Positions 1 to 49,000 of a stretch of DNA of 64,000 bases are shown piece after piece. Below the pieces are notes generated by a model. The model had not been told where the DNA came from, made no database searches, and saw nothing but the letters and a program-made list of their open reading frames with translations. The stretch lies in IMG/VR virus record IMGVR_UViG_2885360797_000005; one strand, given 5' to 3'. Within the stretch, counting starts at the first letter, position 1, and every line of letters begins with the position of its first letter. A program made the translations under genes and the position numbers. Origin of the DNA: a virus (lineage: Duplodnaviria; Caudoviricetes).

Positions 1-54
1 CCAAAGGGGTCAGTCCCGCGTGCCCGAAGGGGTCAAACTCACGCGCCTTTTCCA
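1..54. mobile_element. Probable terminal end of an IS21-family insertion sequence interrupting the integrase
   Basis: Two imperfect 21-bp direct repeats with 23-bp period (4-24 aaggggtcagtcccgcgtgcc; 27-47 aaggggtcaaactcacgcgcc; 16/21 identical). The segment ends in CA at 53-54, exactly where integrase-like sequence stops after HTWATI. TG..CA ends with multiple subterminal repeats are typical of IS21. No transposase is in the window. Confidence 0.55.
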
Positions 55-12875: not shown

Positions 12876-13140
12876 ATTACTTGTAAACTTCGCTTCCTTA
12901 ATCATTTCGGCAGTAATAATCACTATTATCATCAATCGCATTGAGCGCAAAAGGCACGGAGATTATCACATAACCTGCGAGTATATGCGCTACCGCTACT
13001 CATACAGCAAAATGGACGAGTGCATCGCCGAACTCTGCAAGCTGGGTGCTGATGGTTGGGAAATAGCAACCTGCGCAGGCGAAGATAGTTTCGCAGCTTA
13101 CCTCATACTCAAACGTGAAACCCTCCACACATCTAAATAG
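12868..13140 (+). CDS. Membrane-anchored DUF4177-like protein
   Basis: TM helix followed by EY...LGADGWEI...LILKR; ATG at 12868. Confidence 0.55.
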   Translation: MIELLVNFASLIISAVIITIIINRIERKRHGDYHITCEYMRYRYSYSKMDECIAELCKLGADGWEIATCAGEDSFAAYLILKRETLHTSK

Positions 13141-13142
13141 CC

Positions 13143-13370
13143 ATGACTATCGCAAAACAACTCGCACTCGTTCTTGTCAAGGAGATTATCGCCAACAAGA
13201 GGAGCAGCCACATCTCGCCGGACTACGCTCTGCGCAATGAGGTCAACTTATTGCTCGGCCAGGCACTCGATTCACTGGTCGCTGATGGCTCTCTCATTCA
13301 GCGCAGCGCATCGGTAAACCGTTATCAAGCTTATGAGATTCCCCAAACGCCGTGCCAACCTGCTCTATAA
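13143..13370 (+). CDS. Hypothetical small protein, possibly winged helix
   Basis: 75-aa ORF in the operon. Confidence 0.55.
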   Translation: MTIAKQLALVLVKEIIANKRSSHISPDYALRNEVNLLLGQALDSLVADGSLIQRSASVNRYQAYEIPQTPCQPAL

Positions 13371-13510
13371 GCTGCGCCGTAAAGGGATTGAGGCTGACAC
13401 CAAACAACGTGTCATCTTCATTCCCTACGGCGAAGAGCCTCGGCAATACGTGCAGGCCGGTCCGGCTCTGCCGTGAGTTTTATTTCAGTATTCAATTCAT
13501 TATCACATGA
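13333..13510 (+). pseudogene. Small basic protein, probably frameshifted
   Basis: MRFPKRRANLLYKLRRKG... stops at 13476. The +1 frame continues VRLCREFYFSIQFIIT to a TGA that overlaps the next ATG at 13507. Confidence 0.45.
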
Positions 13511-13737
13511 AGAAAGACGGCAATCGAATATCGCTAACAATAAAAGAGGCGGACGAGATAAGAGAATACCTCGAAACTCTTTATGCGATGGAAGGAACGC
13601 TTGACGAGGATTTCAATTCCGAATGTCATCGGGCAGGATTCTATGCCCGGAATATGTGTAAGTTAATCTATGGGCATAGACATCCGACATGGGATGCTGC
13701 AGGCCAAGTCGAATCTAAATACAATCCATTGATATGA
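13507..13737 (+). CDS. Hypothetical protein
   Basis: 76-aa coupled ORF. Confidence 0.55.
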   Translation: MKKDGNRISLTIKEADEIREYLETLYAMEGTLDEDFNSECHRAGFYARNMCKLIYGHRHPTWDAAGQVESKYNPLI

Positions 13738-14637
13738 ACATAGGTATAGTTGACGTTGATGGGCATAACTTCCCCAACTTCGCACTCATGAAAATATCAG
13801 CGTGGCACAAGTCGCAAGGCGACAATGTGGAGATAGCGTTGCCCATGTTCGGCAACTATGACCGCGTATATCAGTCCAAGATATTCACGTTCACTCCCGA
13901 TGAACAAACCGACTGGCAATGTGAAGTTGTCAAAGGTGGTACTGGCTATGATATTCACAGCCGATTGCCCGAAGAGATTGAGCAATCCACGGCAATGGAC
14001 TATTCAATCTATCCCCAGTATCCTTTCTCGATCCAATTCTTTTCTCGCGGTTGCATACGGCATTGTCCGTTCTGCCTCGTCCATGACAAAGAGGGCATGA
14101 TTCGTCCTGTTGAACCGGTCCAACTCAACCCCAATGGAAAATGGATAGAGGTGCTTGACAATAATTTCTTCGCCAATCCCGAATGGAAGAGCGCGATTGA
14201 TTACCTCATCAAAGCCGGGCAGAAAGTAAACCTCCACGGCGTGGACATAAGAATCATGAACGAAGAGCAGGCATATTGGCTCAACAAACTGCGTCTGCGC
14301 CGGAACATACATATCGCATGGGACTTGCCTGCCATTGACCTTACCGAGAAACTACGCGAGGTCACACGCTACTTAAAGCCATACAAAATCATGTGCTATG
14401 TACTTGTCGGCTTCAACTCCACCATAGGGCAAGGATATGTTTAGGATTGAAACGCTCCGCTCCTTTGGTATCAAACCATACGTCATGCCATACCGCGACT
14501 TTGAAAACAAGCGCACGCCCTCGCAGTATGAAAAAGACCTCGCCCAGTATGTCAACAAACCAATGATATTCAAATCATGCACCTTTGCAGAGTTCTCTCC
14601 ACGCAAAGGCTTCAAATGCCAAACCTATCTCCAATGA
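13734..14637 (+). pseudogene. Radical SAM protein split into two ORFs (13734-14444, 14437-14637)
   Basis: SRGCIRHCPFC CxxxCxxC motif, FPNFALMKIS and GGTG N-domain, LDNNF, YVLVGF. The barrel continues in the +1 frame near 14430 (DMFRIETLR..PYVMPY). Confidence 0.7.
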
Positions 14638-23285: not shown

Positions 23286-23771
23286 TTAACGATATGAGAG
23301 TATCAGAATCAGTGATGCGTATAGGTTGTATAGTAGTCCGGCTTCAAGCCAAAAGACAAAGTGCCTGCGGTCTGTTGCCAGGCCGATGAGCGTTGCCGTG
23401 AGTGCTATGTATGGCACTCCGCTTGTCAGTATGAGCCATGCCAGTGCTGACAGCCCCAGTATTATGGCGGCTCCGCTGTGGACGTGGTTCGTCAGTTCCT
23501 CGCGGAAAGCAGGAGCAGCCGCCACAAATAAGATAGAGGCGACTATGAAGAATGCCACGAACTGATAATTGTCGGGCGTGACATTGAGCAGAGGCACAAG
23601 GGCGAGTGTTCCGGCGGTCGCCGTGCAGGTCGGGAAGAGCCACTTTTTCTGCGTCTTGTAGTAGGTTTCGCTGATAGATGTCGGCACTCCTACGTTCAGA
23701 AGGTACGCTATGAGATACAGCGTCATGATGGTGCATGACATCGTCACGCATATAAGTTCCGCTATCATCAT
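23286..23771 (-). CDS. Multi-pass membrane protein
   Basis: About five hydrophobic helices; GVPTSISETYY and H..AA motifs. Confidence 0.7.
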   Translation of the reverse strand: MMIAELICVTMSCTIMTLYLIAYLLNVGVPTSISETYYKTQKKWLFPTCTATAGTLALVPLLNVTPDNYQFVAFFIVASILFVAAAPAFREELTNHVHSGAAIILGLSALAWLILTSGVPYIALTATLIGLATDRRHFVFWLEAGLLYNLYASLILILSYR

Positions 23772-24268
23772 AGTGCGTTCTCGAATTTAGTCCAGTCAAT
23801 AGCGGCTTTCTCCTGCCACGATTTATTGTAGCACTCCTGCGAGAACATCATGAGAGCGTCCGTGAAACTCTCAAATTCCTCGGCATCGGCGAAATAATGG
23901 AAAGCAGGAGAGCCGTCAGGGTAATCTCCCAGTTTGAATTTGAGGGGGAACATGGCGGCTCCCAGTCGCGGTATCTTGACCGACAGCCCGGTTATGTTGC
24001 GCTCTGCTTCCTCATCGTAGCGGACAGGCACGCCTTCCCACTGGAAGCCGTTGCGCTTACGCTCGTCAGCGTCTGCCGAGAGTTGCGCGTTGATGACTGC
24101 CTTTATCTCGTCAAGGGTCGGTCGGCGGTTGAATGTATGGCGATACTCGTATGTGCTTCCCTCTGCCGTTGTATAAAGACCGAAGAAAAGCACCCATGTG
24201 TTGCGCCCTGTTCGTTGCAGGCTGTCCTGCCTTACGGTTGTGCCAAATATCTTTTCCATATCGTTATA
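23768..24268 (-). CDS. DUF4376-like, tail-fibre-assembly-like protein
   Basis: RPTLDEIKAVINAQL...GFQWEG.PV...FPLKFKLG...W.EK..IDW. The start is probably an ATG downstream of the promoter at 24281-24288. Confidence 0.6.
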   Translation of the reverse strand, partial: YNDMEKIFGTTVRQDSLQRTGRNTWVLFFGLYTTAEGSTYEYRHTFNRRPTLDEIKAVINAQLSADADERKRNGFQWEGVPVRYDEEAERNITGLSVKIPRLGAAMFPLKFKLGDYPDGSPAFHYFADAEEFESFTDALMMFSQECYNKSWQEKAAIDWTKFENAL

Positions 24269-24280
24269 TGATTTTTGGCA

Positions 24281-24327
24281 CAAAGATAAGGACCTGCGCT
24301 TTGCAGACCCTTTTAAGTTTAGTGACG
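24281..24327 (-). promoter_or_regulatory. Putative late promoter, copy 3
   Basis: Minus strand CGTCACTAAACTTAAA, 23 bp, TATCTTTG. Confidence 0.7.
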
Positions 24328-24352: not shown

Positions 24353-24601
24353 TTAGGTGAACGAGAATTTCTGCTTGTTGCCGTCAAAGATTTCGCTCAC
24401 GATGGTTGTTTCAAACGGGAACCCATCCTCAATGTCCGAGATTTGGTCAAGGATGTTCTTCATCTCTTCGCTTGCGGTGAAGAATTTGCCCCACTCGCCG
24501 GTCGCCTTGACCTTGAACGATACGAGATAGCGGCTGTTGCCGTATGAGGTGTCCATCTCTACCTCATAATCGTGTATCTCTAACTCTTTGTTTTGGATTA
24601 C
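24353..24601 (-). CDS. RT-associated C-terminal module, out of frame with the RT
   Basis: The -1 frame reads VIQNKELEIHDYEVEMDTSYGNSRYLVSF...KFSFT and overlaps the RT stop. Confidence 0.55.
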   Translation of the reverse strand, partial: VIQNKELEIHDYEVEMDTSYGNSRYLVSFKVKATGEWGKFFTASEEMKNILDQISDIEDGFPFETTIVSEIFDGNKQKFSFT

Positions 24602-25920
24602 GGCATGACTTTGCCGGGAAAGCGGTTCTTCCCATCGGCAGGAGTGTATGTCACTCCCATTTCTGAAAACTTTTTCATACGTTTACCAGTGATTAAGTGA
24701 AATATATACTTACAGTCGGCATGGCACGCCATACCCTTGAATGAGCCTATGATTTCCTGTCTGCGTTTCCGCGATTTCACCTTTGCCAGTTTACGGGCCG
24801 CGTTCTGCTTCGTGCGCCTGCGTATCCGGGCATAGTCGCCGAAATTCACATAACCAAGTGCGTCCATCCCTGCTGTTATGGGCGCAATCCTTTCGCTCGG
24901 CTTTATTGTCAGTCCGAGTTTTGAACTCTCTTCATGTAAGCACTCCCTTAATCTCCATAACTCTCTTTTACTTTCTGCCAGTATAAACGTATCGTCACAA
25001 AATCTGAAATAGTAAGTCGCTCCGTGTTTCTCGATCATGGCGTGGTCGAGGTCGTTCAGATAGAGATTGCCGAAAAACTGCGATGAACGTAAGCCCTTGC
25101 TGATACCTATGTCCCCATCGGGGTGCAGGGCTTTTACGAAATTCCGCAACATCGGTAATAGTATCGGGTCGGATATGTATCGCTCTATAATAGCAATCAT
25201 ATCGTCATGAACTATGTGGTCGTAATATCCTTTGTAGTCCGACTGGTAATAATACTTCAGATTCGGGTTAGCCTCTATCGCGGCTTGTATCTCATGGAAC
25301 AATCCGTGTGGGCCTCGTCCCTTTATGGAAGCGGCCGTGCTTTCAATCAGTACTGGAGCAAGCCGGGTTTCTATGACTTCCATAATGCTGTTGCTCCCCA
25401 TGCGCTCTACGACAATGGGTGCTTGTACTGTCCTTATCTTCGGGCCGTCCTGCGTATCAAAGGATGTCAGTTTGGTTATACGGAATTCTCCACTGCTTAT
25501 AGAGTGTTTAAGCTGCTCTATAATCTCTTTCTTCTTACGCACATATCGCGCCTGCCTCTTGGTGTATTCTTTGCCGTCAATGACAACGGTATCCTTTTTC
25601 TCGCTGTCCGATGCCGACTGGCGCAGGTTGCTTATTACGCGATTGAACGATGATATTAGATTGGCTTCCGTGATTATCTCCGGGATAAGATTGCATAAAG
25701 GATAGTTGACCGAGGGGCAATCCTCGGTCAACTCCATGAATGTTGCTATGTCTGTGACCGCCTTCCGGTCCTGTGGAGAGAGGCATTGCCCCTCTCCACT
25801 GTTGGTTATAATGTTCTTCCGGCTTTCCATATTCTTATGCTGTTGCCGAGGCGCAAACCCCTCGGAGAGTGCTGTGCCTGTCGCGCAGGCGTGCAGGGTC
25901 ATCCGATTGTGTTTAACCAT
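24598..25920 (-). CDS. DGR reverse transcriptase
   Basis: K.R motif (GPKIRTV), ASIKGRG.H, SDYKGYYDHI.H, GISKGLRSSQ (DGR-type GxxxSQ), FRFCDD catalytic motif, DALGY; adjacent to TR. The true start may be 25830 or later. Confidence 0.95.
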   Translation of the reverse strand: MVKHNRMTLHACATGTALSEGFAPRQQHKNMESRKNIITNSGEGQCLSPQDRKAVTDIATFMELTEDCPSVNYPLCNLIPEIITEANLISSFNRVISNLRQSASDSEKKDTVVIDGKEYTKRQARYVRKKKEIIEQLKHSISSGEFRITKLTSFDTQDGPKIRTVQAPIVVERMGSNSIMEVIETRLAPVLIESTAASIKGRGPHGLFHEIQAAIEANPNLKYYYQSDYKGYYDHIVHDDMIAIIERYISDPILLPMLRNFVKALHPDGDIGISKGLRSSQFFGNLYLNDLDHAMIEKHGATYYFRFCDDTFILAESKRELWRLRECLHEESSKLGLTIKPSERIAPITAGMDALGYVNFGDYARIRRRTKQNAARKLAKVKSRKRRQEIIGSFKGMACHADCKYIFHLITGKRMKKFSEMGVTYTPADGKNRFPGKVMP

Positions 25921-25923
25921 TCA

Positions 25924-26039
25924 GAATTTGAGCCGACCACCGTAGTTCGTGTTCGAGTTCGAAGAAGCGTTGTTCGCGTTCGCATAAGCGAGGCCGCCAT
26001 TCGCATTCGAGTTGTTGCCCGACCGCAAAACCACACGGC
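25924..26039 (-). repeat. DGR template repeat (TR)
   Basis: 116-bp repeat of 26206-26321. Contains 10 AAY codons and 26 adenines on the minus strand; all 14 differences are at TR adenines. Confidence 0.97.
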
Positions 26040-26066
26040 GCGCGGGGTTATCTGCCTTTCAAGGTG

Positions 26067-26074
26067 CAAAGTTA
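26067..26074 (-). promoter_or_regulatory. -7 promoter box for the TR-RT transcript
   Basis: TAACTTTG, 27 bp upstream of TR; lacks the late-promoter upstream motif. Confidence 0.6.
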
Positions 26075-26105
26075 CAAAATTTTCGCCTAACTCGACTCGC
26101 TTACG

Positions 26106-26163
26106 CGAGAAAAGGAGAGGGAGCAACCTCCCGTTGGTCGGTTCTCCCTCTGCGCTTTTTTCG
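26106..26163. other. Hairpin/cruciform downstream of VR (DGR homing element and/or terminator)
   Basis: agagggag(c)aacc pairs with ggttctccctct, and the outer cgagaaaag with cttttttcg; lies just past the target stop codon. Confidence 0.7.
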
Positions 26164-26178
26164 TGGGGACGAGTTCCG

Positions 26179-29100
26179 CTATCCGACAATGACGAATTTT
26201 CCGCGGAAGGCGAGCCGACCACCGCAGCTCGCGACCGAGCTCGAAGAAGCGTAGCTCGCGCTCGCATAAGCGAGGCCGCCACTCGCACTCGAGTTGTTGC
26301 CCGACCGCAAAACCACACGGCCACGGAAGCCGGGCAACCAGTGTCCTGCCGCATAGTGGGTAGTGTATCGGCTTGTGTCGGTCTGATGCACCTTACTTGC
26401 AAGAATGTCACACTTTGCGCCGTGGACTACACGCACCACGCAGTTACCGTTGCCGGTTACTGTCTGCACAACACGTTCCGTCTTGGTGATTGGGTCATAG
26501 ATATGAGCCTTGTAATCAATCGGGTCATCGTTGTTGTTATCAAGACAGCGGTTTTTATAGAATTCGGCATAACTCTTAACGTTGCAGGCGATATAGTCCA
26601 TCCACTCCGAGTCACAGCCGACATAGTGCTTGAGTCCCAGTATTGAGTTCATGGCATTGCCGACATATTCCGTGTCAGCCATACCGATGGAGTCACGGCT
26701 GTTCAGCGTTGCGTCATGCGCTCCGTTGCCGACAACAGCCTGCTCGTTGGTCGTTCCGCTCAATGCCCACCATAGGTTGCTGATTTCCTTGTGCTGTTCG
26801 TAGTCTTGCAACTGATAGCCTGCTCCGCGCCTGCGAGTGCTGTTTTGGAAATCCTTATCCGTGTAGTGGATTGTGCCGACTGGGGTTTCGGTCGGGTTGC
26901 CGTCTGAATCATGCGCCCACTCGGACGAGGTGGTTGAATTGCCGTCACCTTTTTTGGAACGGATAGCACCCGAAAGACTGCGAGGCATTTTCAGTCCGTC
27001 AATAGTAATCGGGTATGTTCCGATGAGGCTGTCGTTCTCGCCGACCGTGTGTTCAGTCCATTCGGGTTCGATCGCCTCAATGTGTGAACTGTCAACGGCA
27101 AGACACATGATGTCGCCGATGTCGCGGTATGAGGTGAAGTACATCCACTTTGCACCGCTCGGCACATCGCAGAAGACGTAGTTGCCGATTGAGAAATCAA
27201 AGTAGGTGTGGCTTACCTGCATGATGAACGAGCCGACAATCTTGCCGTCAGCGTCAGTAAAGACTGCGCCGAGGCGTGCGTGGTTCAGTCCGGGCCAGCG
27301 TGCCTGCTTCATGCCCTCTACGTCCATGCGATAGGCGTTAATGTTGGAGGCTGTGGCGATGACAGTATCATCAATGGTTTCTCCAACCTGCGCTTCGTCT
27401 GCATAGACCCCGGTGTTTTCAGCATAGAGCAGTTCCGAAAGCATAGCCTTAACGCTCTTGTTGACGGTCGATAGAGGTTCATTCTCCGTGGTAGAATACA
27501 AGATATATTTCTTCTGATTCTTGTAATCGTTCACCCCCTTGTACCAGTGGTGCGGCAGGTGATGGAAGATGTCGAAACCCTCTCCGGCTTGGTCGGAGTT
27601 GTCAAAACTTTCGCCCGAATTGAGGTAGCCGAAATCGGTGTCGCTCAACTGCACTCCCTCCATTTGATTGAGTTTGGAGTTGAACGTACACTTGTAGGCG
27701 TGAATACCCTGCTTGATTTTGAGGGTGTGACCGCTCGGCGCGAATGCCTTGTTGTAGTCTGCGCCAGTCTGATTTTCGGGGTTACTGTACCTCTCGCAGA
27801 AATCTCCGCCGATGATGTCATCAATCTTCAGCAACGAGAACTGGGAGTTGATGAGGTCGAGTTCGGGGAAATAGTTGCTCAGCGTTGTCATGCCTGCGTT
27901 GCCGTCCGTGTCAGTGTCCTCAATGAGTTCCGACAATATCCAACGGCCCGTGATGCCCGAACACTGTCCGCTCTCTTCGTAGGCTTTGCCAGTCGCGTCA
28001 AGTCCGATGGCGCCGGTCTTGCGCAGCTGACGGAGTACCGACACACTGGCGGTCATGTTGATGTTCGGAATGCGAACCTCGCGGATTGCTCCTGCCTCTG
28101 CGATTGTCATCACAAGGCTCTCCACGTCCACGAAGTCGCAACCCTCTACCCACAGACGGTTGATGCCGTTGACGCTTGCCAGTGTCAGACCGCCGGGATA
28201 TGTGAGCCTCGGCAGGTTCACAAGTTCCAGTTTGGTTACTGACGCAGGCAGTTTCAGCGTTTCGATAGGCGATGTCTGCGCAAGGTCGCAGTTGGTAAGC
28301 AGTGTGTTGCTTGCGTTGATTGATTCAATGCGCGGACAGCCCTTTGCATCAATGCCAGTAGCAGTGGTGTTGCTCACGTCAAAGATGCGCAGGAACGGCA
28401 TATCTCCCAACGTCAGGTTGCCGAGAGGATTGAAGCCGTTGAGCGCGGTGTTCTCGGTGTGCTTGTCACCGCCCAGTATGATTTCTTCGGCAAGCTGCAA
28501 CTTGCTCAAATCGTCAAAGTGGAACGCGAGGGACATTTCCGAAAGGTCAATCTTGCTCATGCGCCCAGTCTGATAGATGTAGAGCAGTGCGCCTGAGTCA
28601 TGGGCGAAAAGCGTGAACGCGTGGGTCTGTCCTGCTTCCAAAAAGACGGATTCCGACAACTGACCGCTTGCGTCATTACCGATTCCGAAATATCCCGGAG
28701 CTGCTGCGGTGATGTAGATTTTAGAATCGGCTTTGATGGCAGACACACGTCCGCTCAATGGATTGGTAAAGAAGTCGCCTGTCTGATAATAGCCGTCACG
28801 GATTGCCCAACGCTGTTCGATGAATCGGGGCAGTGTTGTCAGTCCCAGGCCGTGAAGCGCGTAGAAGTACGGCAGGTTGGCTATGCCAGTGTGGTCAATG
28901 TACTTGCGCTCTCCGTCATACGATGATACGACTTTGGGCCAGAATTTCAGACGCTTCTCCACAAAGAAGTATAACGCTCCATCGGGCGAGAACGGAACGA
29001 GGGTCTTGCCGTCTATCTGCGCTGTCTGATTACGCATTCGGTTCACAACACTCTTCAGTGATATGGTGGTCGTGCCGAGGTCGTTGCTGTTCCAGCACTC

Positions 29101-32100
29101 CTGCTGACGGTCCATGTTGTTGAAGAGTACCGAGCCGTAACCCATGTAGGGATTGGTATAACCGGTAGCTTCATCAGTCATCTTGTTGGGGTCTACCTCC
29201 GCGTCTATGTCTCGGCCGCCGTCATTGTCTGCGCCGTTGCAGGTGTCACAGTCATATACCTTGTTAAGATACATTCGGGTTGGCTCCATATTTCGGTAGC
29301 CGGAGTAAACGCCGTTCTCTACCGAACAGCCGTCCTCCAAGAAGAACATAGGCTGCATATTCTTGGCTCGTTGGTCAACAGCCGCGAGATAGTCAGTAAA
29401 GGCGGTGTATGCCATTGCGCTCTCAAGCGACATATAGCGGTAGGCGTTCTCTCTCCATATCTTCTCCCACCCGTTGACTTTGGAGTAGTCGCAGGAGTTG
29501 AAGAAACGAAGCATATTGAAGAGGTCGTAGGGTACTTTCTTGCCGAGTGCCAAATCCTCTTGGAGTTGGTCATCGTCAATCATGCACTCAAAGTAGTACG
29601 TCCATGCAGGATATTCCGTAGCCGCAAGTCCGAGTTTGCGAACCCATGATGAAATCTGTGTTGACGGCTTCATCATGTCTTCAATAGTCGCTACACCCTG
29701 CCACCAGTCCATACCTGCATATTGCAGTAGTTCGTAACCACTCACCGGGTTAAGCACATCGCCGGTCACAACCCACATGCCGTCAACCTGCTTCATTGAG
29801 CCAGTCGAACGTGTCCATGCGCCGTTCTTGTAGCGGTAGATAGCATAGTCGCGTCCGCAATACTGTGATATGAGATACACATTCTTTTGGGCGGCCTCTG
29901 TATTTGTTTCGGGGTCTGCCTTGAAACGAGCCTCGGTTTGCGCGAGGGTTTCATCGGGTGTGCCGAAGTATTCCACAAAGTCTCCGTAGTTGAGACAGCC
30001 TTTGTTATAGCCGGGTGTATCCTTGAAGCCGAGGGCGGTCTGCTCTCCCTTGTCCTCTTTCCAGTTGCCCTTGGCATGAAACCATGCGTCCTGCAAGGTG
30101 TCGGTCGTGGCGCGGAAGCAGGCTATCGGGTGGTTCTTTGTGGAATGGTCCATCTGACGACCCGTGATAACGTCTCCGTTGGAAAGAATCTGACGCCCGT
30201 CAAAGGCTCTTTGCGCCGGGGTCATGTATGACGAGCCGAGAGAGCGGAATGTGGCGTTCATCATATCGCACACGCCGCAGTCGTTGGCATTGGAACTGTC
30301 GGAATAATCGACTTTGACAGTAACCACGTCAATAAAGTTACCAGTCTCAGCGCAAAACACCTTTCGGTCAGCAGCAGCCTTGATTGCGTTGCGTCCAAGT
30401 TCGGTGCTGTCATCGGGATTGAGCAGGGTGACGGTCGCTTTAAGTCCTGTGGTCTTGTTCTTCTTGTTGAAGTTGAAGCGGTCGTTCTTAATGGGTCGCT
30501 GTGCCGAAGTCGTTCCCTGCCTGCGCCAAAGCACATTCACAGCCTTGAAGTTTACTTCCGGATGCTGTGGGTTGAAGTAGTACAGCGTGCAGGCAAACTG
30601 GTCGCTTGTTGATGTACCGCCGTTCAGAGCATAGTCGAAATTATTGAATGTGGTCTGGTCGGCGACAATCACATAGTAAGGTATACCTTTGGCCGCCATA
30701 AGGCTCATGGACGGCTTGCCTGTCGTATCCAGTACATTCTCTTTGTCATACTCCGCTATCATGGCGCGGACATCGCTCAACTTGCAAAGGTAGTTGCGGA
30801 ATGCCTGCAACCATTCCATATAGGAGTTGTAGGCCATGATGTAGTTGAGGTTGAAATCGCCGTTCTCGGAGTTGAACGTGATTGTCCTGTTCTGACGCAG
30901 TGCGCTCGTTCCCGGCTGATAGCCTATGGCGGCGCACTCCTCGCCGTTGACGTAGAGTTTGACAAAGGAGTAGTTCGTTCCGCTGGATGCGTCTGAGGCT
31001 TTGTATGTGACATACTTGCTCCCCGGCTCAACGACAACGGCGACTGTCACTTTCTCTCCGCATTTGAAGCCTACGCGCTGTCGCCTCGGCGTGCCGTTAA
31101 GCACTGTCAGCACAATCTCATTGCCACGTATATAGAAGCCGACACCTGCCGCAGGGTCGTAGCACTCGCAGAGCATAGCGTTTCTATCCTTGATACTCTT
31201 GGTGGAGAATGCCAACTGGATGGCGGCTCCGCTCGTTTCAAGGGCAGAGGGCGAGAACGGCGCATAGGGTATCTCCGCTTTGACATTTTCGGCGATGCGC
31301 AGGACATTCTCACCGAGGACGGACACAAAGCCGTTGGAGCTCCAGTTACTGCCGATGACCTGCATCGTGTAGCCGTTGTCCTTGATGGTGTGGTCGCTCT
31401 CGCTGTTGTTGCGTGTGGAGAAATCGTAGGCGAAGAGTGCGCCCTCTTTGATCTCAGCGTCAATGGCCGAACCCTCGACCGTGAGTGTGATTGTATAGGA
31501 CTTGGATGTTCCGCTCTGTGCGTACACGTCAAAACTCTTGCTTCCGTCCGAGGCATAACCTTGAATCTGCTTCGTTACATTGAGCGTCTGACTGGTTTCG
31601 CAGTTGGCGGTAGTGGCTATATGTCCGTCAATCATTACCTCAATGGCTGTGCGTGTTTTGCCCGGAGTGTAAGCTGCGACATCAAGCGCGATGGAATCAT
31701 ACAAGCGCACTTTACCCTCGTTGCGGTCATCGTATCGCATGACTACAATCGGCGTGCTGTTGTTTGCGTCAACGCACATCACGGCTGTGTAGATTGTATT
31801 GCCTGTCACACCCGAAGCAATGTCTTTGCCTTGAATGCGCAGGGGGTATGCGCCGTGCGTCAGTTGTTCGGAATTGCCGAACACGTTGTTCGGGTCAATG
31901 CTGATGTTGTGGCTGTACTGGTCTGTGACCGTAGCCGTGCCGAGGGTGTGCCATGCGCCGTTGTAGAACATCTCGGTTGTCACCAGTATGCCCTGTTTGG
32001 TGCTGACGTTGTTTTCAAACTTATACATCGGCAGGCTCTTCTCGCGTCCTCCTGCTTCAAGAGCGGTGGCGGCTGAGTAGTTAAGTGCCTGCACACAGGT

Positions 32101-34581
32101 ACACGTCACGTCAACGGCGGTAACGCTGATTACACGAGTGCGCTCGTTGCCGTCCGCGTCAGTGGCTTTGATTTTGTAGTCCTTGCTCGATGCCCCGGTT
32201 ATGAACTCGGTAAAGTCAAATTCAAATTTGAGGTCATTGGCTGATGTTGAGGACGGCTGATTGACAACCTCACTCCACAACTCTATATTGGTGGTCGGGT
32301 CGATGATACTCAGTGAGCGGATTGTTCCCAGTACCTCATCTTCGCCGTCATAACTTACGCTCTTGATGGCGGCCGACAAAACGATTTTACCACCATACGC
32401 GCCCCATACGGCAGAGTCGCAGTAGATGGTGAGTGTGCTTCCGCTCTGACCGCCACCGCCGTTGCTCTTGGGTATCTTCACGGAATCGCCGAGAGGTTCG
32501 CCTGCTTTAGTTACGGCTTGTATGATATAATCCGATGGGGCGGGTTCTATCTGCAAGCCTCCGAATGAGCGTTGTTCCATATCGTACGCGCCGCCGGTTG
32601 ACAATGCTTTAGTGCCGTTTACCTCTGGCTCGTTGCCGAGTTCAAAAGTAGAGCCACCGCCACCGCCGAAGTCTGGCCATAGGTCATCGCCGTTTGTCGC
32701 GGATATATCCTGCACCTGCCCACGGAACTGCTTTGTCTCCCATGCATGGGGCGTTTTGGAAGAATCCCTGCGGTAGGTTATGACAAGTCCGGATTTGAGA
32801 TAGTTTACCCCGGTGGTGTCGCGCAGGTCAATGAGTGCCTGTATGGCAAGCGACATGGTGTAGTCTTTATCTTCGCACACCTCATTGACATTCACGATGG
32901 CTTCTGCGCCTGCGCTCATGCCTGCGAGATCGAGCCAGTTTTCACTGCTCAAAACATCTTCCTTTTCAAGTGTCGCGCCGACATACTGGTATATCTTCCA
33001 CGCACCGTGAGCAACGGCAAAGGTAATCTGCAAGCCGAAACCTGCCTTTCCCTGCTCATAGACTATCGCTGGAGCATAATACTTGGTGTCGGTCGGGTCG
33101 TTCAATTGATAGAACAACTTGTCGGGGTCGCTTGTGGGTATTTCCGATGTGAGGTTGAACGTATTGCCGACTGAAGCCCCTCCGACCATTGTCAGTTTAT
33201 CGTTGATAATGCGGTATAGTCCGTCTGCCATACGATATAGACAGCCGGAATTATACGTCATGTCAGAGTTATATTCTTCTTCAGGGAGGTCATAAAAATT
33301 GGTGTTGCCAAAACTGCGGAAATACCAACCGCCCTCTTCATTCGGACAAAGCCATACACCACTTTTAGGTGTAGTGCCGGTTCCATCCCATTGACCGTCA
33401 CAAAGCAGAATCCCTAAGTTGCGCAATCGGTTGGCTGTGTTTTTTAGATTTTTCTGCAACTGCGCTCCTTCATCGCCGGGGAACGCCGTGTTTGCTGTAC
33501 GACCCAGTGCAAGGTCATTACCAATGATGACAAGTTGTGTGCCACTCCAACGATAGGTTTTATTATCTGAGGTAGAAATATACACCTTGCCACCTTCGGG
33601 GATTCTACCTTTTGCGTCACCTTCACCAAAGGAGCCACCGTCAAGCCAGTTGTTGTAGTAGGTGAATTTTGATGTGATGAGTGAGGCTGTTCCGTCCGTA
33701 AGTTCCCAGTAATCCACAACGTTCAATAGAGGCAACGCCTCAACGCTCTCTGCGGTGGCGGTGGCAGGAGTGTTGAGTGTCTTTATCGGGCGCAATATCT
33801 GCTCTCTCCATTGTGTACGCTGTTCATCGGGTATGGCCAAATGCGACACTGCAAGAATAAATCGGTTGCGGTCGCTGTCATAAACCACCATACAACCGGC
33901 ATCAGTTGATTTTTTGTTCGCTGATTGTGCAAGCGGTGTTATGTCGGAGACTATGGCATTGAACTCTACGACATCATCAACGAAGCCGGGAAGCTGCGCT
34001 GACGGAACTTTGCCGTTTGCGTCAAGAGAGGCCAGGCCGTTAGCCTTGCCCTTGCTGTTGTTGATGCTCTGAATGCTTGTCTCAGCATTGGTCACGCGAG
34101 TTTTCAGGCCGGACACATCGGTCGTGAGCGTATTGACCGAACTGCCGATAGTGTTTATCTGCGTGCGTATCTGCTCAATGCTCTGTGCGTTTGCCGATAC
34201 ATCTTTCGCCAGTTCTTTCAAATCAGCGTCAAGGGCCGCAACGGCATCGTTGTACTGTTGGCTGTCAATGGTCGGGTTGCCTGCCGATTCGCCGGTCGCT
34301 ACCCATGCACCGCCGTCTGCGATGTATAGGGGCGCAGGCAGGGTGTTGCCGACTAATGCCCACCAACCGTCATGCGGTAACGGATATGCCTCACGGAGTT
34401 TAGTCACGTCAAGGAAGATACCTTTGTTGGGGCCTTTGATGTTTCGGGCATCAAGCCATCCCTCAACTTTCAGATTCTTCTTGACAGTCGTATTCCCCTG
34501 TATGGTCGCGTTACCGCCTGCGGTGACGTGTCTGCCGATAGCCACATCACCCTCAATTTCGGTTGTCTTTATCTGACTCAT
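26179..34581 (-). CDS. 2800-aa tail fibre/receptor-binding protein, DGR target
   Basis: Fibre-type N-terminus (coiled coil, GLASLDANGKVPSAQLP, YRWSGT), Ig-like and LamG-like beta domains, CotH-like region, LRR-like repeats, C-terminal CLec-type end (EW..., VVLRSG...GGRLAF) containing VR. Confidence 0.9.
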   Translation of the reverse strand: MSQIKTTEIEGDVAIGRHVTAGGNATIQGNTTVKKNLKVEGWLDARNIKGPNKGIFLDVTKLREAYPLPHDGWWALVGNTLPAPLYIADGGAWVATGESAGNPTIDSQQYNDAVAALDADLKELAKDVSANAQSIEQIRTQINTIGSSVNTLTTDVSGLKTRVTNAETSIQSINNSKGKANGLASLDANGKVPSAQLPGFVDDVVEFNAIVSDITPLAQSANKKSTDAGCMVVYDSDRNRFILAVSHLAIPDEQRTQWREQILRPIKTLNTPATATAESVEALPLLNVVDYWELTDGTASLITSKFTYYNNWLDGGSFGEGDAKGRIPEGGKVYISTSDNKTYRWSGTQLVIIGNDLALGRTANTAFPGDEGAQLQKNLKNTANRLRNLGILLCDGQWDGTGTTPKSGVWLCPNEEGGWYFRSFGNTNFYDLPEEEYNSDMTYNSGCLYRMADGLYRIINDKLTMVGGASVGNTFNLTSEIPTSDPDKLFYQLNDPTDTKYYAPAIVYEQGKAGFGLQITFAVAHGAWKIYQYVGATLEKEDVLSSENWLDLAGMSAGAEAIVNVNEVCEDKDYTMSLAIQALIDLRDTTGVNYLKSGLVITYRRDSSKTPHAWETKQFRGQVQDISATNGDDLWPDFGGGGGSTFELGNEPEVNGTKALSTGGAYDMEQRSFGGLQIEPAPSDYIIQAVTKAGEPLGDSVKIPKSNGGGGQSGSTLTIYCDSAVWGAYGGKIVLSAAIKSVSYDGEDEVLGTIRSLSIIDPTTNIELWSEVVNQPSSTSANDLKFEFDFTEFITGASSKDYKIKATDADGNERTRVISVTAVDVTCTCVQALNYSAATALEAGGREKSLPMYKFENNVSTKQGILVTTEMFYNGAWHTLGTATVTDQYSHNISIDPNNVFGNSEQLTHGAYPLRIQGKDIASGVTGNTIYTAVMCVDANNSTPIVVMRYDDRNEGKVRLYDSIALDVAAYTPGKTRTAIEVMIDGHIATTANCETSQTLNVTKQIQGYASDGSKSFDVYAQSGTSKSYTITLTVEGSAIDAEIKEGALFAYDFSTRNNSESDHTIKDNGYTMQVIGSNWSSNGFVSVLGENVLRIAENVKAEIPYAPFSPSALETSGAAIQLAFSTKSIKDRNAMLCECYDPAAGVGFYIRGNEIVLTVLNGTPRRQRVGFKCGEKVTVAVVVEPGSKYVTYKASDASSGTNYSFVKLYVNGEECAAIGYQPGTSALRQNRTITFNSENGDFNLNYIMAYNSYMEWLQAFRNYLCKLSDVRAMIAEYDKENVLDTTGKPSMSLMAAKGIPYYVIVADQTTFNNFDYALNGGTSTSDQFACTLYYFNPQHPEVNFKAVNVLWRRQGTTSAQRPIKNDRFNFNKKNKTTGLKATVTLLNPDDSTELGRNAIKAAADRKVFCAETGNFIDVVTVKVDYSDSSNANDCGVCDMMNATFRSLGSSYMTPAQRAFDGRQILSNGDVITGRQMDHSTKNHPIACFRATTDTLQDAWFHAKGNWKEDKGEQTALGFKDTPGYNKGCLNYGDFVEYFGTPDETLAQTEARFKADPETNTEAAQKNVYLISQYCGRDYAIYRYKNGAWTRSTGSMKQVDGMWVVTGDVLNPVSGYELLQYAGMDWWQGVATIEDMMKPSTQISSWVRKLGLAATEYPAWTYYFECMIDDDQLQEDLALGKKVPYDLFNMLRFFNSCDYSKVNGWEKIWRENAYRYMSLESAMAYTAFTDYLAAVDQRAKNMQPMFFLEDGCSVENGVYSGYRNMEPTRMYLNKVYDCDTCNGADNDGGRDIDAEVDPNKMTDEATGYTNPYMGYGSVLFNNMDRQQECWNSNDLGTTTISLKSVVNRMRNQTAQIDGKTLVPFSPDGALYFFVEKRLKFWPKVVSSYDGERKYIDHTGIANLPYFYALHGLGLTTLPRFIEQRWAIRDGYYQTGDFFTNPLSGRVSAIKADSKIYITAAAPGYFGIGNDASGQLSESVFLEAGQTHAFTLFAHDSGALLYIYQTGRMSKIDLSEMSLAFHFDDLSKLQLAEEIILGGDKHTENTALNGFNPLGNLTLGDMPFLRIFDVSNTTATGIDAKGCPRIESINASNTLLTNCDLAQTSPIETLKLPASVTKLELVNLPRLTYPGGLTLASVNGINRLWVEGCDFVDVESLVMTIAEAGAIREVRIPNINMTASVSVLRQLRKTGAIGLDATGKAYEESGQCSGITGRWILSELIEDTDTDGNAGMTTLSNYFPELDLINSQFSLLKIDDIIGGDFCERYSNPENQTGADYNKAFAPSGHTLKIKQGIHAYKCTFNSKLNQMEGVQLSDTDFGYLNSGESFDNSDQAGEGFDIFHHLPHHWYKGVNDYKNQKKYILYSTTENEPLSTVNKSVKAMLSELLYAENTGVYADEAQVGETIDDTVIATASNINAYRMDVEGMKQARWPGLNHARLGAVFTDADGKIVGSFIMQVSHTYFDFSIGNYVFCDVPSGAKWMYFTSYRDIGDIMCLAVDSSHIEAIEPEWTEHTVGENDSLIGTYPITIDGLKMPRSLSGAIRSKKGDGNSTTSSEWAHDSDGNPTETPVGTIHYTDKDFQNSTRRRGAGYQLQDYEQHKEISNLWWALSGTTNEQAVVGNGAHDATLNSRDSIGMADTEYVGNAMNSILGLKHYVGCDSEWMDYIACNVKSYAEFYKNRCLDNNNDDPIDYKAHIYDPITKTERVVQTVTGNGNCVVRVVHGAKCDILASKVHQTDTSRYTTHYAAGHWLPGFRGRVVLRSGNNSSASGGLAYASASYASSSSVASCGGRLAFRGKFVIVG
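26206..26321 (-). repeat. DGR variable repeat (VR)
   Basis: Encodes RVVLRSGNNSSASGGLAYASASYASSSSVASCGGRLAF, versus TR-derived RVVLRSGNNSNANGGLAYANANNASSNSNTNYGGRLKF. Confidence 0.97.
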
Positions 34582-43031: not shown

Positions 43032-43073
43032 CAAAGATAACACTCTGCATCGTCCACAATCATTTAACTATTG
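43032..43073 (-). promoter_or_regulatory. Putative late promoter, copy 5 (portal)
   Basis: Minus strand CAATAGTTAAA, 23 bp, TATCTTTG. The -7 box sits inside the tggacggtgca/tgcatcgtcca inverted repeat. Confidence 0.55.
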
Positions 43074-46000
43074 CTGTATGTATTCCTCTGCGAATCGTTC
43101 CTTCATTTTGTTGACCTGCACAGAATCATGAGCGACTTTCATAAGTGATACAACCTCCCGTTTGAGCCTGCGCATTTCTTCCTCGTATGTCGCCCGTTCT
43201 TCATCGGCGATTTCAGAGTCTTTTGTCGCTCTGTTCAACCAGTTGTAATCGGTTATATACTCATCCATCACATCATGCCTTGCTCCGTCTCTCGAATGTT
43301 TCAGAGCATCAAGAAAAATACTGTACCTGTCTGAGCCTCGCTCTGCCTCGTCCTCGTATTTACGCAAAAGGGTGTGAGTGCGTCTGTATTCCTCAAGATA
43401 TTTGAAGAAGTCCGAGTTTATTTTTTTCTCGGCGGTTCGTTCGTCTCCCATCTTGACAAGCCTGTTCACCAGAAGGATGCTGCTCGGGTCATACTCCCGC
43501 TCTCCGAGCATCGTCTCGCCGGTCTTGACCATCTTGTTGATTACATTTGAGTAGCCGCCGAAGTAACCGTTAAGAAGGTACTCCAGCTGCGCGGGGTTGA
43601 AATTCGCCCATCCTGCGGCATAGTTGTTCCCTCCGCTTGCCTCGTTAGCCCATCGGGATAGTTCAACGAGCTGAGTGTTGGTGCGTGGATATGCTTTTGT
43701 CCATTCGGGCATATTCTTGTTGAACGGAGTGTTTTTGTAGATGGGCAATCCTGTCCATGATGTATTTGTAGCTGTTTCCACCATGGGTTTAAACGCACTC
43801 GGAACGAATGCATGCAGTCCGCCTCCTCCCTCCATGAAGTCAAGAGGAAGCAGTTGCGAGAGTTGGGATGCTGTCTCTTTCGCCAGTTCTGCGTCTGAAT
43901 ACTCTTCCCTTCCTGATGTCACACTGTAAGCGAGTTCTCCAAGACCATAAATTGCCCGGTATTCAACCGGTAGTGGAATTGTTAGCCATTGTTCGCCGAA
44001 GCGGAACATCAGATTCGAACGGCGCGTGTACTTCGGTACGTTATAATATCCATTCTTATCCTCATCATCTCCGTCATCCGCCAGTAACGCCATTATATAA
44101 CCCAACAGCAAAAGTGAGGTTGCGGCTGTGATAGACTTGACAGGGTGCTTGCGGAATGCCTTGCCGAAGTTCGCCGTGCCTTGTATGGCAGCATTCCAGA
44201 ACACATAGAAACTCCTGCCGAGACCGGAAGTGAATCCGGCAGCTTTGCCTGCAAAAGTCTGTCCCGTTGCATCCATGAATTTGCTGCCAGCTCCCTTCTT
44301 GTTGAAATTGACGGATATTTCCTTTGCATCATACGCAGACCTCTGTACGTCTCTTCCGACCTCTCGCGATGTTATGAAGGCCGCGAATCGCGCACTGTTC
44401 TCCACTGCCCGGTTTATCTGGTCGAGGTTGTTGCCGATAAGACCAAGAATACTCATCGGATTCAGCTGCCCCCTGCGGGCCTCTTTCATTATTTTTGATA
44501 CAAGCTTCTTCTCCTGTTCAAGATTCCGCTGCAAGGTATAGCCGGTCTCACCACCCCAATGCATGAACTCATAGAACATTCTGTGCATTGGATTGCGCAT
44601 ATCAAGTTTATTCGCCTCATATAGGTGCAGAAGCTCGACCATGCGTATGGGATTGACCTTGGCGTGGTTCTTGTGGAATCTCATCGCATAACCTTGATTC
44701 TCCTTCACATGTACCATCGTGTTGGAATATATCAGGTCTCGGATAAAGTTCGACACAACAAAGTCGGGGTTTCGTGTGGTGTAGAGCTGGCTTAACTCCC
44801 GGTTGACGGTTGAGGCTATATTGAACACTTTGCCGATAGCACCGTTGAGGTCATTGTCGGGATTGGTAAGCCCGTTGACTGCCTGAGCAGCCCTCGGATT
44901 GCCGTTGATGGTGATGACATAACTCTCGCCGTTGCGTTTCACTACCACTTGATGTTCTTTGATATTGCCGTCAACAATACGATACGGTATGCCGATAGCG
45001 TCTCGTCCTCGCTTATACTTGTCCGGTTCCGATTGCGACAACGACTCCATGCGCTCCTCGAAATCCATCACAACTTTGTCTATCTCATCCGGTGTCATGT
45101 TTTCGTCCACATCGGCAAAGACAGGCTTCCATGTATCCGTAATTTCGTCATGGACCAGCCATAGTTTATTCACGCTTGCAAGGTCGCTCGGATGATTCTG
45201 AACATATGTGAGGAATTTCTGCTTCATGACGTTGCGGTTACCTTGTATGATACTGTTCTGCGCCATATAGGCAATCGTGGCCAGTGGGTCATCCGCCTTA
45301 GATTTTCGCCCTTCCGCTTTCTTTATTGGACTGCTGAACGCACCCTTTTTGCTTGTCAGATAGCCATACACATCATCGCTCGTCTTCTCGTCAAAGCCTT
45401 GCAGTGGAATGTAGAAGTTATACATATCTCGAATCTTCTCATACTGCGCCTTGCTTATCAAACCGCAATTATAGATTTTCTGCAAAGATGTTTTGGTAGC
45501 TTTGTTTACTGCACTCCACAATGCAGGGATATCTGTTGAATGCGCCGCCTCGTAATCGTCAACCATTTGCTGCGCCACGATTTCAGCGTTCTGCCAGTCC
45601 GTCTCTCCGGTCAGACCGCATAACCCGGCAAAGTCTCGCTCTGATTCTTCTCCATTGGCAATAGCTTCATTACGCATATAGGCATTACGCTCCAGTCCAT
45701 GCTTGGCCATCATATAGTCCAACAGCTCTTCACGTCCTCTTTTATCACCGGACATGCGAGCGGCTATATCAAGGAGAGGGCGCAGGATGCGATGTTCATA
45801 CTCGTCCATTTCAGCATGGCTCTTACTGCTCATAAGGTTTTCTGCTATGTATGCGTTCTCAAAACTTGACACATCCTCTATGTCGCGTTTTGCACCTTGA
45901 CTTTCCACGGCTTTGTAGAATTCCATAAGTCCTCGCATGGAATCCTGCATAGCCTCGGTAAACTGGTACATACTTGACTGTATCTGCTTCTCATACATGG

Positions 46001-49000
46001 CACGAGCCATCACCGGGACGCGCTCCACATAGTCAGCCCCGTCTCTGAATCTCACATCTTCGTCTCCGTCAAATGTCGGATTCTCAAAAGTTTTTATTAC
46101 CTTTGCAACATCTTCCAAGTCAAGATAGTCAACGTCAGCGAGAATCGTTCGCTGTTTGTCTATTAAGGCTTGGATTTTTTGTTTGTCTGCATAAAGCAGC
46201 TTCCCTTGCGAAATCCAGTTCAGCCATTCGGCGTTGTGCTTGGGGAATACATTTCTTACGCTGTTTATCTCCAGCGCTTTGCCATTGACAATCGGATTTA
46301 GGGAAAGTCCTACGATAAATTGCTTGCCATTGCTTTCAATTCCCACAATAATATTCTGCATCTTCCCCTTGTTGCCGTAGGCGAATACTGCCATAGGGGT
46401 CTGCAGTTCCTTCACAAGATTCCGTATCTCCGCCAAATCAAAATCATGCCCATATTCGGTTGCTTTGGCACGTAGTCTTGTGGCAGACATCTGAATAGGC
46501 AGATTGGGAACACCGGTGGAGCGTAAAATGTTACTTGGCATTCCTAACTGATAAATATGGCCGTCAGGAAGATTCCCATCAACCTGCCGCTGTAATTCTT
46601 TATTGAAACGATTGTTGGCGTCCTCAATTTTGGCAGATTCGCTCAACATAGCCTCGCCCCATCCCGTACGGTGACGCATAACGGCATCCTCGGCATCGGC
46701 GAACACGCCGCCTTTGCCCTGTTTATCGCGCATATTCTTCCATGACTTGAAGAGGATATATGAAAGGTCTTTATCGTTGAGGCGTATGCTCTTGGCAATT
46801 TTTAAACCGCTCAGGAATTTGTCCAGGAACGATTGAACCTTTGCCTTGATTTTACCCCAGAGCGTCAGTTCGTCACGGCTCATCTTCTCAAAACCCTCGC
46901 TGCCGATACGACCGGCGAGATCTGCCATATATTCCTCAGTGGCTTCCTTGCGGAAATCCTTGCGCTTTGCTTCGGCCTCAACTCGCGCCTCTGCCATGTC
47001 GGTGTAGTAATTGGCGTTCACATCTTTCCCGGCTCGCTCGTGTGCCTGTGCCTTGCGAGTGCGCAGGCGGTCGGCTTCCTCGCTCACCATTCTGTCGGTC
47101 ATCTTGTCAATGACTTTGCGGATGGGATTTGAGGCATGGTCGTAAATCTCGCCGAGGAATTCATCGAAGCGTTCCTCTCCTACGAGCGCACGCAGGCCCT
47201 TGTGTCCTGCAACTTCATGGACAAACGTATTGTCCACATCGGCTACATTGACGTTGTTAGGCAGGACGATGACAACCTCATCATCCTTTGCGCTCCACCA
47301 GCCTTTGGCACGCCTCTCTCTGCGAGTGGGGAGTGCATCGGCCTCTTCCTGCGTCCTTACAATACGGACTGGGGTGTTGGCTCTTGCCGACAGGTCGGCG
47401 ACACGCGCTTCTTTGGCTTCGGTCGATGATTCGTAAGCGTCAAGGTAGGCGCGTGCCTTTTCAAGACCTGCGTCCCATTCGCCTGCGTTCACTCGATCGC
47501 GCAGCTCATTGAGCATGGGTATGTCGGCTTCTGCCACGCTTCCGCTGATGTCACCGAACTTTGCGCCACGTTTGGCGAGTTCGGCACGGAGCATCGGGGG
47601 AACGGCATTTATGGGGAACGTAATCTTTTGGTTGCCCACGCGCTCCATGATGAGGTCTGCAACCTCGCTCCACGGAACAATGCGCCCCGGCTTGAAATAG
47701 CGCGACAGCATGGTCTGAACCTTGGTGTCATCGCTCAACTGACCGTTGACGCTTCCGCTGTGCCAGTCCATAAGACCTACGGAATCCTTTGCGCCCTCGG
47801 CCTGATAGCCGCTCGTTTCCTCGCTTTCGGGATAGTAACCCTCGACAACAAGAAGTTCGGGTCGGTCGTAGGCGGCTGTGAACTGGTCGTTGAGCGGAGA
47901 GGTACGGATATGGAAATATGGATTGTAGGCCACATCCCCGGTGGTGCGTCCGTTACCCTGCACAAGGTCGGCTTTGCCGTTCTCCTTGCGCATACCCTCT
48001 TCGCTCTGCTCCCAACGGCTGAATATCATCGGCGCACGCCATTCTCCGTTCTGCTTGGCGGTCATGGGTGGCAATACGCCCATGTTCGCCCACTGCGAGT
48101 AGCGGTAGCCTTTCTTCAGCGGCTGTGCGTCAAGGAAGTCAAGCAGTTCACGCTCGGCGACAAGGCGATACTTATTGCCGTCCCCTGTGGTCGGGGTGTC
48201 AGTGCTGTCCTCATCGGTCAGAGTGATGTCCGAAGCGGTTTCTACCGATTTGTCAAGTTCGGCATACTTGGCTTCTTTCTCTGCCAATTCTTTCTTCATG
48301 GCTTCCTCATACTTGGCAAGACGCTCTTTGGCTTCTGCCAGTTCCTGCTTGTGTGGGAACTCACGGCCGTTGCGCTGTTCAAGTTGGGTTCGTTCCTCGG
48401 TGTAATGAGCGAGTTGCTGTTGACCCCTGCTAAGGAGTTCACGGCTCTCTCTGCCAGTCACAATGTCCTCGGCGATTTTCTGCATTATGTTCTTTAGACG
48501 GTTGCCCTTGATGGCTTGGTCTTTAATGCCGAGTTCCTCGCAGGAATATGTGACATTGCGCTCCGGCTCAAACGTCAGAGTACCCTGACCCTTGCTGTCA
48601 ACGGTTCGGCTGACGGTCGTTGTGACCTCAAATTTCAAGCCGTCAACATCGACCACAAGTTTACTGGTGTAGTTGTCAGCACCCTCACGGACATTCTCGG
48701 CCGCCTCGTTCATCTTGGCATTCTGCTCTTTGAAGAAATCATCCATAGCAGCCACGCTGTCGAATGTGAGTTTGCCGATGGTTATCTTCTTGATAGTGCC
48801 GTCGGGGAAGTGTGAACCGATTATTTCAAGGTTCTTGGTTTCAATCTCGATGCGGCGTTCAGCACCTTTGATGAAGCCCTCAACCTTTGGCAACTGGTTG
48901 TGAACATAAATCTGATCGAGGTCGTGACCTTTCTGCTTGGCGGTAAGATTACGAACCTCGCGCTCGGCTTGATTCTTCAGTATGGCATACTCACTGCCCG

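Follow-up and report, generated by a model that had tools for sequence, protein, structure and literature searches.

What does the window, a 64,000-nt stretch of Caudoviricetes DNA (IMG/VR record IMGVR_UViG_2885360797_000005), encode where a reverse transcriptase (RT) gene adjoins a pair of repeats, one of them at the end of a 2800-aa gene? The question is whether this is a genuine diversity-generating retroelement (DGR), to which lineage it belongs and whether this copy can still be at work. We found that the element is a genuine DGR; very probably it belongs to the Bacteroidales-phage clade of DGRs that includes the hankyphage element, resides in a temperate prophage of ~64 kb and is a copy that has lost the C-terminal domain of its RT. 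The genes of the whole region are on the minus strand, and the repeats were read on that strand. The features on which the identification rests are the following.

26179-34581, minus strand: target gene, an open reading frame (ORF) of 2800 aa in the structural module between the capsid and lysis genes.
26206-26321, minus strand: variable repeat (VR), 116 nt, of which 26212-26321 (repeat positions 1-110) is the rewritten part.
25924-26039, minus strand: template repeat (TR), 116 nt, with a fixed AAA at positions 111-113 (25927-25929).
26209-26211, minus strand: fixed GCC triplet of the VR, the Ala of an RLAFRG motif, GCC in 58/58 IMG/VR and 24/24 genome loci.

The TR (26039 to 25924) and the VR (26321 to 26206) are direct repeats with a start-to-start offset of 282 nt, and they are the only two copies of the repeat in the 2.88-Mb assembly containing the window. 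They differ at 14 of 116 positions, all of which are adenines in the TR (26 A in total), a pattern with a hypergeometric chance of 2.4e-11 (3.2e-9 for the 11 differences within positions 1-110). This agrees with the sequence-only reading made earlier, which had listed 14 mismatches exclusively at TR adenines, and no mismatch at another base exists in the window; its ratio of 14 out of 26 adenines, however, has to be reduced to 11 mutagenic differences out of 23 adenines when the AAA/GCC triplet is excluded. Likewise, the roughly ten Asn-templated codons proposed at the time correspond to ten AAC/AAT codons of the TR in the frame of the target, but the randomised codons number 13, as TAT, ACG and TAC have to be added; the VR changes fall at codon positions 1 and 2. 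The VR ends 27 nt ahead of the stop codon of the 2800-aa ORF and is followed by a hairpin (26116-26155), as had been noted before.

The same pattern was found in related loci. A related RT is encoded at 80 IMG/VR loci, of which the 58 with both repeats aligning in register were used for TR/VR comparisons, and 24 more distant prophages from named Bacteroidales genomes formed an additional set. Across the 58 loci, 545 of the 569 TR/VR differences in positions 1-110 are on TR adenines (A>T 271, A>G 221, A>C 53), and each of the 23 adenines in this interval is variable somewhere; the 24 genome prophages display the same adenine pattern. Lineage differences at non-A positions of the TR are mirrored by the VR through position 110, which shows that copying from TR to VR goes on. 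Variation of the VR next to a constant TR, the behaviour that had been named as a check, was apparent both among the 58 loci (14 distinct TRs vs 58 distinct VRs) and in a sibling contig (L003) that shares 99.5% identity with the window across 6.5 kb, and 100% in RT core residues 1-409: of the 24 substitutions between the two, 18 are in the VR and one is just 5' of it. In addition, 11 of the 80 IMG/VR contigs start or end within the 116 nt of the VR, which would be expected where a mixture of VR alleles disrupts assembly.

At repeat positions 111-113, all 58 IMG/VR loci carry AAA in the TR and GCC in the VR, and in the 24 genome prophages GCC is constant in the VR, against AAA, GAA, GAT, AAC, AAT, GCG, ACA or GGA in the TR, so that GCC occurs in all 82 VRs examined and in no TR. 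Because the TR/VR difference is fixed at 58/58 loci, the triplet is a boundary marker of the IMH/IMH* kind (initiation of mutagenic homing) and not a result of mutagenesis, an option that the sequence-only reading had already raised. The relatives give a clean natural definition of the limits of transfer, i.e. positions 1-110 plus a single fixed 3' triplet. A fixed TR/VR difference at the 3' end is also a property of the DGR of Bordetella phage BPP-1 (mtd, avd, TR, brt), where the IMH difference comprises 5 positions in a 35-bp element; in contrast, that of the window is a single triplet, and the window hairpin is located ~50 nt from the VR.

24598-25830, minus strand: RT core, 410 aa (Pfam RVT_1), all that aligns to the Bordetella RT (bRT), ending at a premature TAA.

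The RT motifs GxxxSQ and xxDD recognised in the initial reading are present as GLRSSQ (25078-25095) and FCDD (24991-25002), while an RT start at 25920 was not upheld: conservation among the relatives begins at the ATG at 25830 (MESRKN), which is the start that they have kept. The best PDB match of the RT is 8ub7_A, a 328-aa RT (E 7e-16), with retron-type and group II RTs ranking behind (~1e-10); 8ub7 has the length of BPP-1 Brt and is presumably bRT, compared with which the RT family described here has ~45 extra N-terminal and ~115 extra C-terminal residues. In a tree of 29 RTs, including six retron and six group II RTs, the family grouped with BPP-1 Brt and other phage RTs, several of which we take to be recognised DGR RTs, with a support of 97 in the Shimodaira-Hasegawa approximate likelihood-ratio test (SH-aLRT), and was sister to the hankyphage RT (100). 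It was separated from the retron RTs (100) and the group II RTs (95), which answers in favour of a DGR the phylogenetic check suggested beforehand. Two further RTs were noted: one of 439 aa in the same assembly (contig C283, L089, 913-2232), which the tree places within the DGR clade as a long branch, and a group II intron RT/maturase of 622 aa on the window's own contig, 60 kb past the window (C322, 123857-125188), which belongs to the outgroup of the tree.

26182-26841, minus strand: variable domain, the C-terminal 220 aa of the target, with a predicted C-type-lectin (CLec; DGR variable-protein) fold (structure model, VIA-align comparison, profile match).

The target is probably a tail or receptor-binding protein. 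No Pfam family was found in the 2800 aa, nor in the last 499 aa searched separately, and these 499 aa match phrog_14959 and the 'tail protein' family phrog_5302; the gene is syntenic with gp14 of phage BS-TP4 and gp44 of phage BKO1-TP3. An initial model for the last 330 aa from 22 close relatives was unusable (predicted local distance difference test, pLDDT, of 29), which was remedied by a deeper alignment drawn from matches in 275 representative clusters, where the variable domain forms the C-terminal part of proteins of 200 to 2900 aa. The resulting model of the last 220 residues, built on a 45-sequence alignment (pLDDT 80.5), was compared with 48,161 PDB representatives by VIA-align. Its top three structural matches are all DGR variable proteins, namely TaqVP (5vf4; Z 10.6, root-mean-square deviation 3.6, 171 residues), TvpA (2y3c; Z 5.8) and Mtd of BPP-1 (1yu0; Z 5.6), followed by formylglycine-generating-enzyme (FGE) and C-type-lectin chains, and the sequence profile of the domain matches TaqVP 5vf4 as well (E 3e-4); Foldseek returned weak rows only (TaqVP, E 0.06). 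According to the model, the VR therefore lies in a C-terminal domain of C-type-lectin fold, and the randomised codons probably change receptor binding.

26044-26057, minus strand: leader at the 5' end of the DGR RNA, which provides one strand of the duplex with the spacer.
25831-25923, minus strand: structured spacer RNA between TR and RT, with helices 25902-25906/25862-25866 and 25886-25890/25876-25880; 25849-25861 pairs with the leader.
26067-26074, minus strand: putative -7 box TAACTTTG, just upstream of the conserved leader, fitting the Bacteroidetes TAnnTTTG.
26116-26155, no strand assigned: hairpin of 12-13 bp with A6 and T4 flanks, downstream of the target stop.

Some 25 nt upstream and 90 nt downstream of the TR are conserved in all relatives. 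A single-sequence fold of the TR region was no better than shuffles (z -0.4), and the helices become visible only by comparison: when a four-helix RNA model was evaluated on 21 diverse sequences, 93.3% of the cells were paired (vs 77.0 +/- 1.2% in shuffles and 32-49% with slid partners), and 14 of the 20 modelled pairs had changes on both sides. The leader helix (helix 2; 26044-26049 with 25856-25861) is 100% paired with covariation at all six pairs, and the entire leader-spacer duplex comprises 10 pairs that are 96-100% paired, 8 of them with compensatory changes. TR/VR homology begins 4 nt past the leader helix. In the Bordetella ribonucleoprotein, cDNA synthesis ends just ahead of an avd:Sp 'cPRT Stop' duplex (bioRxiv 10.1101/2023.10.23.563531); the survey in that study was limited to DGRs with Avd. 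The covariation proves that a clade lacking Avd retains the leader-spacer duplex of the Bordetella cryo-EM structure, i.e. a duplex of TR-upstream sequence with the spacer that brackets the TR.

The sequence-only reading had also placed a promoter upstream of the TR, and a Bacteroidetes-type -7 box (consensus TAnnTTTG) is indeed found there, suggesting promoter function. It is one of two minus-strand consensus matches within 24-27 kb and reads TAACTTTG or TAATTTTG in the five examined loci that share a 281-284-nt arrangement, window included. All relatives have the hairpin, its stem altered by compensatory changes, and it is there both where a toxin-antitoxin pair comes next and where the TR does; it may be either a terminator or a DGR target-site hairpin.

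Combining these features, the element might operate as follows. An RNA starting just downstream of the -7 box would carry the leader, the 116-nt TR, the structured spacer and the RT message, and pairing of the leader with the spacer would leave the TR as a loop flanked by two helices, comparable to the situation at the avd:Sp 'cPRT Stop' duplex of Bordetella. The RT, once primed, would copy the TR into cDNA with misincorporation opposite adenines, and this cDNA would replace VR positions 1-110, which belong to the last 40 codons of the 2800-aa virion protein. The triplet found as GCC in all VRs but in no TR would mark the 3' limit of the transfer, and thirteen codons (the ten Asn codons plus TAT, ACG and TAC) would be randomised on the predicted C-type-lectin-fold domain.

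24596-24610, minus strand: site of a 7-bp deletion; GCTTAGG is present in the sibling L003, and the RT frame is shifted in the window.
24353-24604, minus strand: detached C-terminal domain of the RT (phrog_19665); 24353-24556 (67 aa) is its sole ORF that has a start codon.

Whether the window copy itself carries out these steps depends on its RT. The element had been taken to end at 24598, and an ORF does end at this position, but it is that of a truncated RT: the window lacks the 7 bp (GCTTAGG) held by the 99.5%-identical sibling L003 at ~24603, resulting in a frameshift and a stop at 24598. An intact RT has ~494 aa, with ~85 further residues in frame in 79 of 82 relatives, and that of the window, which stops after residue 410, is not an intact gene. 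Between the detached piece and residues 412-494 of the intact RT, identity is 99%. The domain contains invariant motifs such as DGKKRFPG, with a K-to-N change in the window at the invariant second Lys of this motif. The current activity of the window copy is doubtful because its RT is truncated; it may conceivably still diversify on its own, although we lean against this. Lesions in the same part of the RT were noted in two other relatives: in L071 (~5200), an A-run directly ahead of the KRFPG motif is shorter by 1 nt, and in L004 (3920-6070) the RT frame continues into the DUF4376 gene, giving an ORF of 716 aa.

An alternative explanation is that the truncated RT works, either with a dispensable C-terminal domain or with the domain or the whole RT supplied in trans by the 67-aa remnant or by a second RT on contig C228 of the same MAG. 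Everything that can be aligned to bRT lies in the 410-aa core, phrog_19665 attests that the domain exists as a stand-alone family, and C228 encodes an intact RT of the same family (52% identical) with its own TR-like sequence. However, the domain is fused and in frame in the 79 of 82 relatives mentioned above, and its identity within the clade is 61-91%; the remnant is missing the invariant DGKKRFPG segment, and the leader and spacer of C228 are unlike those of the window, all of which makes this explanation unlikely. The C228 element itself (L086, 480-2235) consists of the TR-like sequence, a conserved spacer and the RT of 479 aa, and no VR copy was found on this 3.5-kb contig.

A fully active element, in which both lesions, the 7-bp loss and the neighbouring K-to-N change, stem from assembly or consensus faults of the MAG or belong to a minority allele and the RT of the population is an intact protein of 494 aa, appears quite improbable. 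The deletion junction was not seen in three public collections (viral, genome and metagenome), the RT of the sibling L003 is intact, and the window derives from a fragmented assembly of 329 contigs, but a clean loss of 7 bp outside a homopolymer is untypical of short-read error, and the second lesion, only 22 bp off, affects a residue that is invariant in 20 relatives, so that the two lesions together look like decay. Finally, that the locus is not a DGR but an ordinary duplication of the 3' end of the gene, diverged by point mutation or recombination, has nothing in its favour beyond the existence of the direct repeat and is refuted because the differences are A-specific, all on one base of one strand and likewise in ~80 relatives, next to an RT of the DGR clade and in a domain of predicted CLec fold.

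Several observations weigh against the reading of the window as a DGR of this clade, or against parts of it. The ~110-aa domain that was lost exceeds the RT core in conservation, with 61-91% identity within the clade and a mean column identity of 75%. The Bordetella enzyme needs Avd, and canonical Avd (PF05635), searched for at E<=1 throughout the assembly (94% complete), gave no match; of the BPP-1-type signature claimed in the sequence-only reading, the adenine-specific TR/VR pattern stands, but strictly speaking the element does not belong to the BPP-1 type. The putative promoter consists of one 8-nt motif, the -7 box, with no -33 TTTG box beside it, and the hairpin, ~50 nt beyond the VR and with A/T flanks, resembles an ordinary bidirectional terminator. 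VR turnover is seen across the lineage rather than within the window's own population, and the role of the target in adsorption, and with it tropism switching, is presumed.

The window covers the initial 64 kb of a >126-kb contig in a metagenome-assembled genome (MAG) of 329 contigs and encodes an integrase, a portal protein, a terminase, an SU10-type capsid protein, a holin and an ORF of 6613 aa. The tyrosine integrase (39-1112, minus strand) is at the very start of the contig, which indicates that the assembly breaks at one prophage end, and the 6613-aa ORF (43068-62909, minus strand) lies beside the portal gene and has a length of 5391 aa in BS-TP4. Synteny links the window to BS-TP4 and BKO1-TP3 (PQ571277, PQ571269), two cultured temperate phages of Bacteroides, both of ~64 kb, for which DGRs have been reported with gp14 of BS-TP4 as the target (Gut Microbes 2025, PMC12694917). 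RT relatives were found in prophages of Prevotellaceae, Muribaculaceae (Duncaniella muris), Bacteroides, Phocaeicola and Alistipes genomes, and the clade is abundant in the gut Bacteroidales of humans, mice and ruminants.

The window DGR is hence a new member of an already published phage family and sister to the hankyphage element. It shares with BS-TP4 and BKO1-TP3 the gene order (capsid, two small genes, giant target, DGR, DUF4376, lysis), an RT that is 64-66% identical and a TR that is 89% identical. In contrast to the window, both have intact RTs; BS-TP4 harbours a RelE/XRE toxin-antitoxin pair between VR and TR, with a spacing of 1012 nt instead of 282 nt, and BKO1-TP3 contains a single TR-like copy as a fusion with the target gene. 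Hankyphage (Bacteroides phage p00) has an RT of the sister clade with the same C-terminal domain, a DUF4376 gene after the RT, a TR that is also 116 nt long (77% identity over 90 nt) and a VR at the end of a tail fibre of ~2200 aa, and its DGR was reported to be active in culture (PMC12135933); however, it is a Mu-like transposable phage, its RT is only 38% identical and a small ORF separates its VR and TR. With BPP-1, the window shares A-specific TR-to-VR transfer, a target with a C-terminal CLec fold (Mtd, see above) and an RT of the same clade, but has no Avd and an RT extended at both ends. As the family is published and the sister DGR of hankyphage has been shown to be active, the DGR by itself adds little.

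Related loci differ in their layout. The RelE/XRE pair is present between VR and TR in L001 (BS-TP4; 13481-14141) and in most IMG/VR relatives (spacing ~950-1012 nt) and is missing from the window's lineage and many genome prophages (spacing 209-352 nt). Seven loci (L015, L017, L018, L074, L080, L047 and L054) have a TR with non-A bases at usual adenine positions and few TR/VR differences (3 in L015), which suggests VR-to-TR conversion or chimeric assembly of the repeats. In L002 (BKO1-TP3; 13100-13560), L005 (3792-3907) and L016 (3794-3901), a lone TR-type copy with all Asn codons and AAA instead of GCC is joined directly to the target gene; recombination between the repeats has apparently removed the interval from VR to TR, and such a fusion would lock the target protein in the template state and stop diversification.

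23768-24283, minus strand: DUF4376 protein (Pfam PF14301), always next after the RT in the clade.

The DUF4376 protein is 28% identical to its hankyphage counterpart (E 5e-18), which has the same domain and is drawn as 'Avd' in the hankyphage paper (PMC12135933), and part of the literature associates DUF4376 with receptor-binding proteins and tail-fibre chaperones; the protein could be either a tail-fibre chaperone or a DGR accessory protein. For the C-terminal domain of the RT, a resemblance to the single-stranded DNA-binding protein (SSB) of phi29 proposed by a protein language model (score 0.95) was unsupported, as Pfam returned nothing at E<=10, hhalign against phi29 p5 gave a probability of 0.1 and no PDB sequence matched; small ORFs overlapping the 3' end of the DGR RTs in BPP-1, VP585, LBR48, cr50_1 and vir215 are not of the same family as this domain. 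As a tentative proposal that we regard as possible rather than probable, the Bacteroidales-phage DGR clade (the window family plus hankyphage) may be free of Avd, with the ~110-aa C-terminal domain of the RT, perhaps together with DUF4376, replacing Avd in holding the DGR RNA. This strongly conserved and unnamed domain is a candidate accessory module, and if the proposal is true, the window copy would be a natural knock-out of it.

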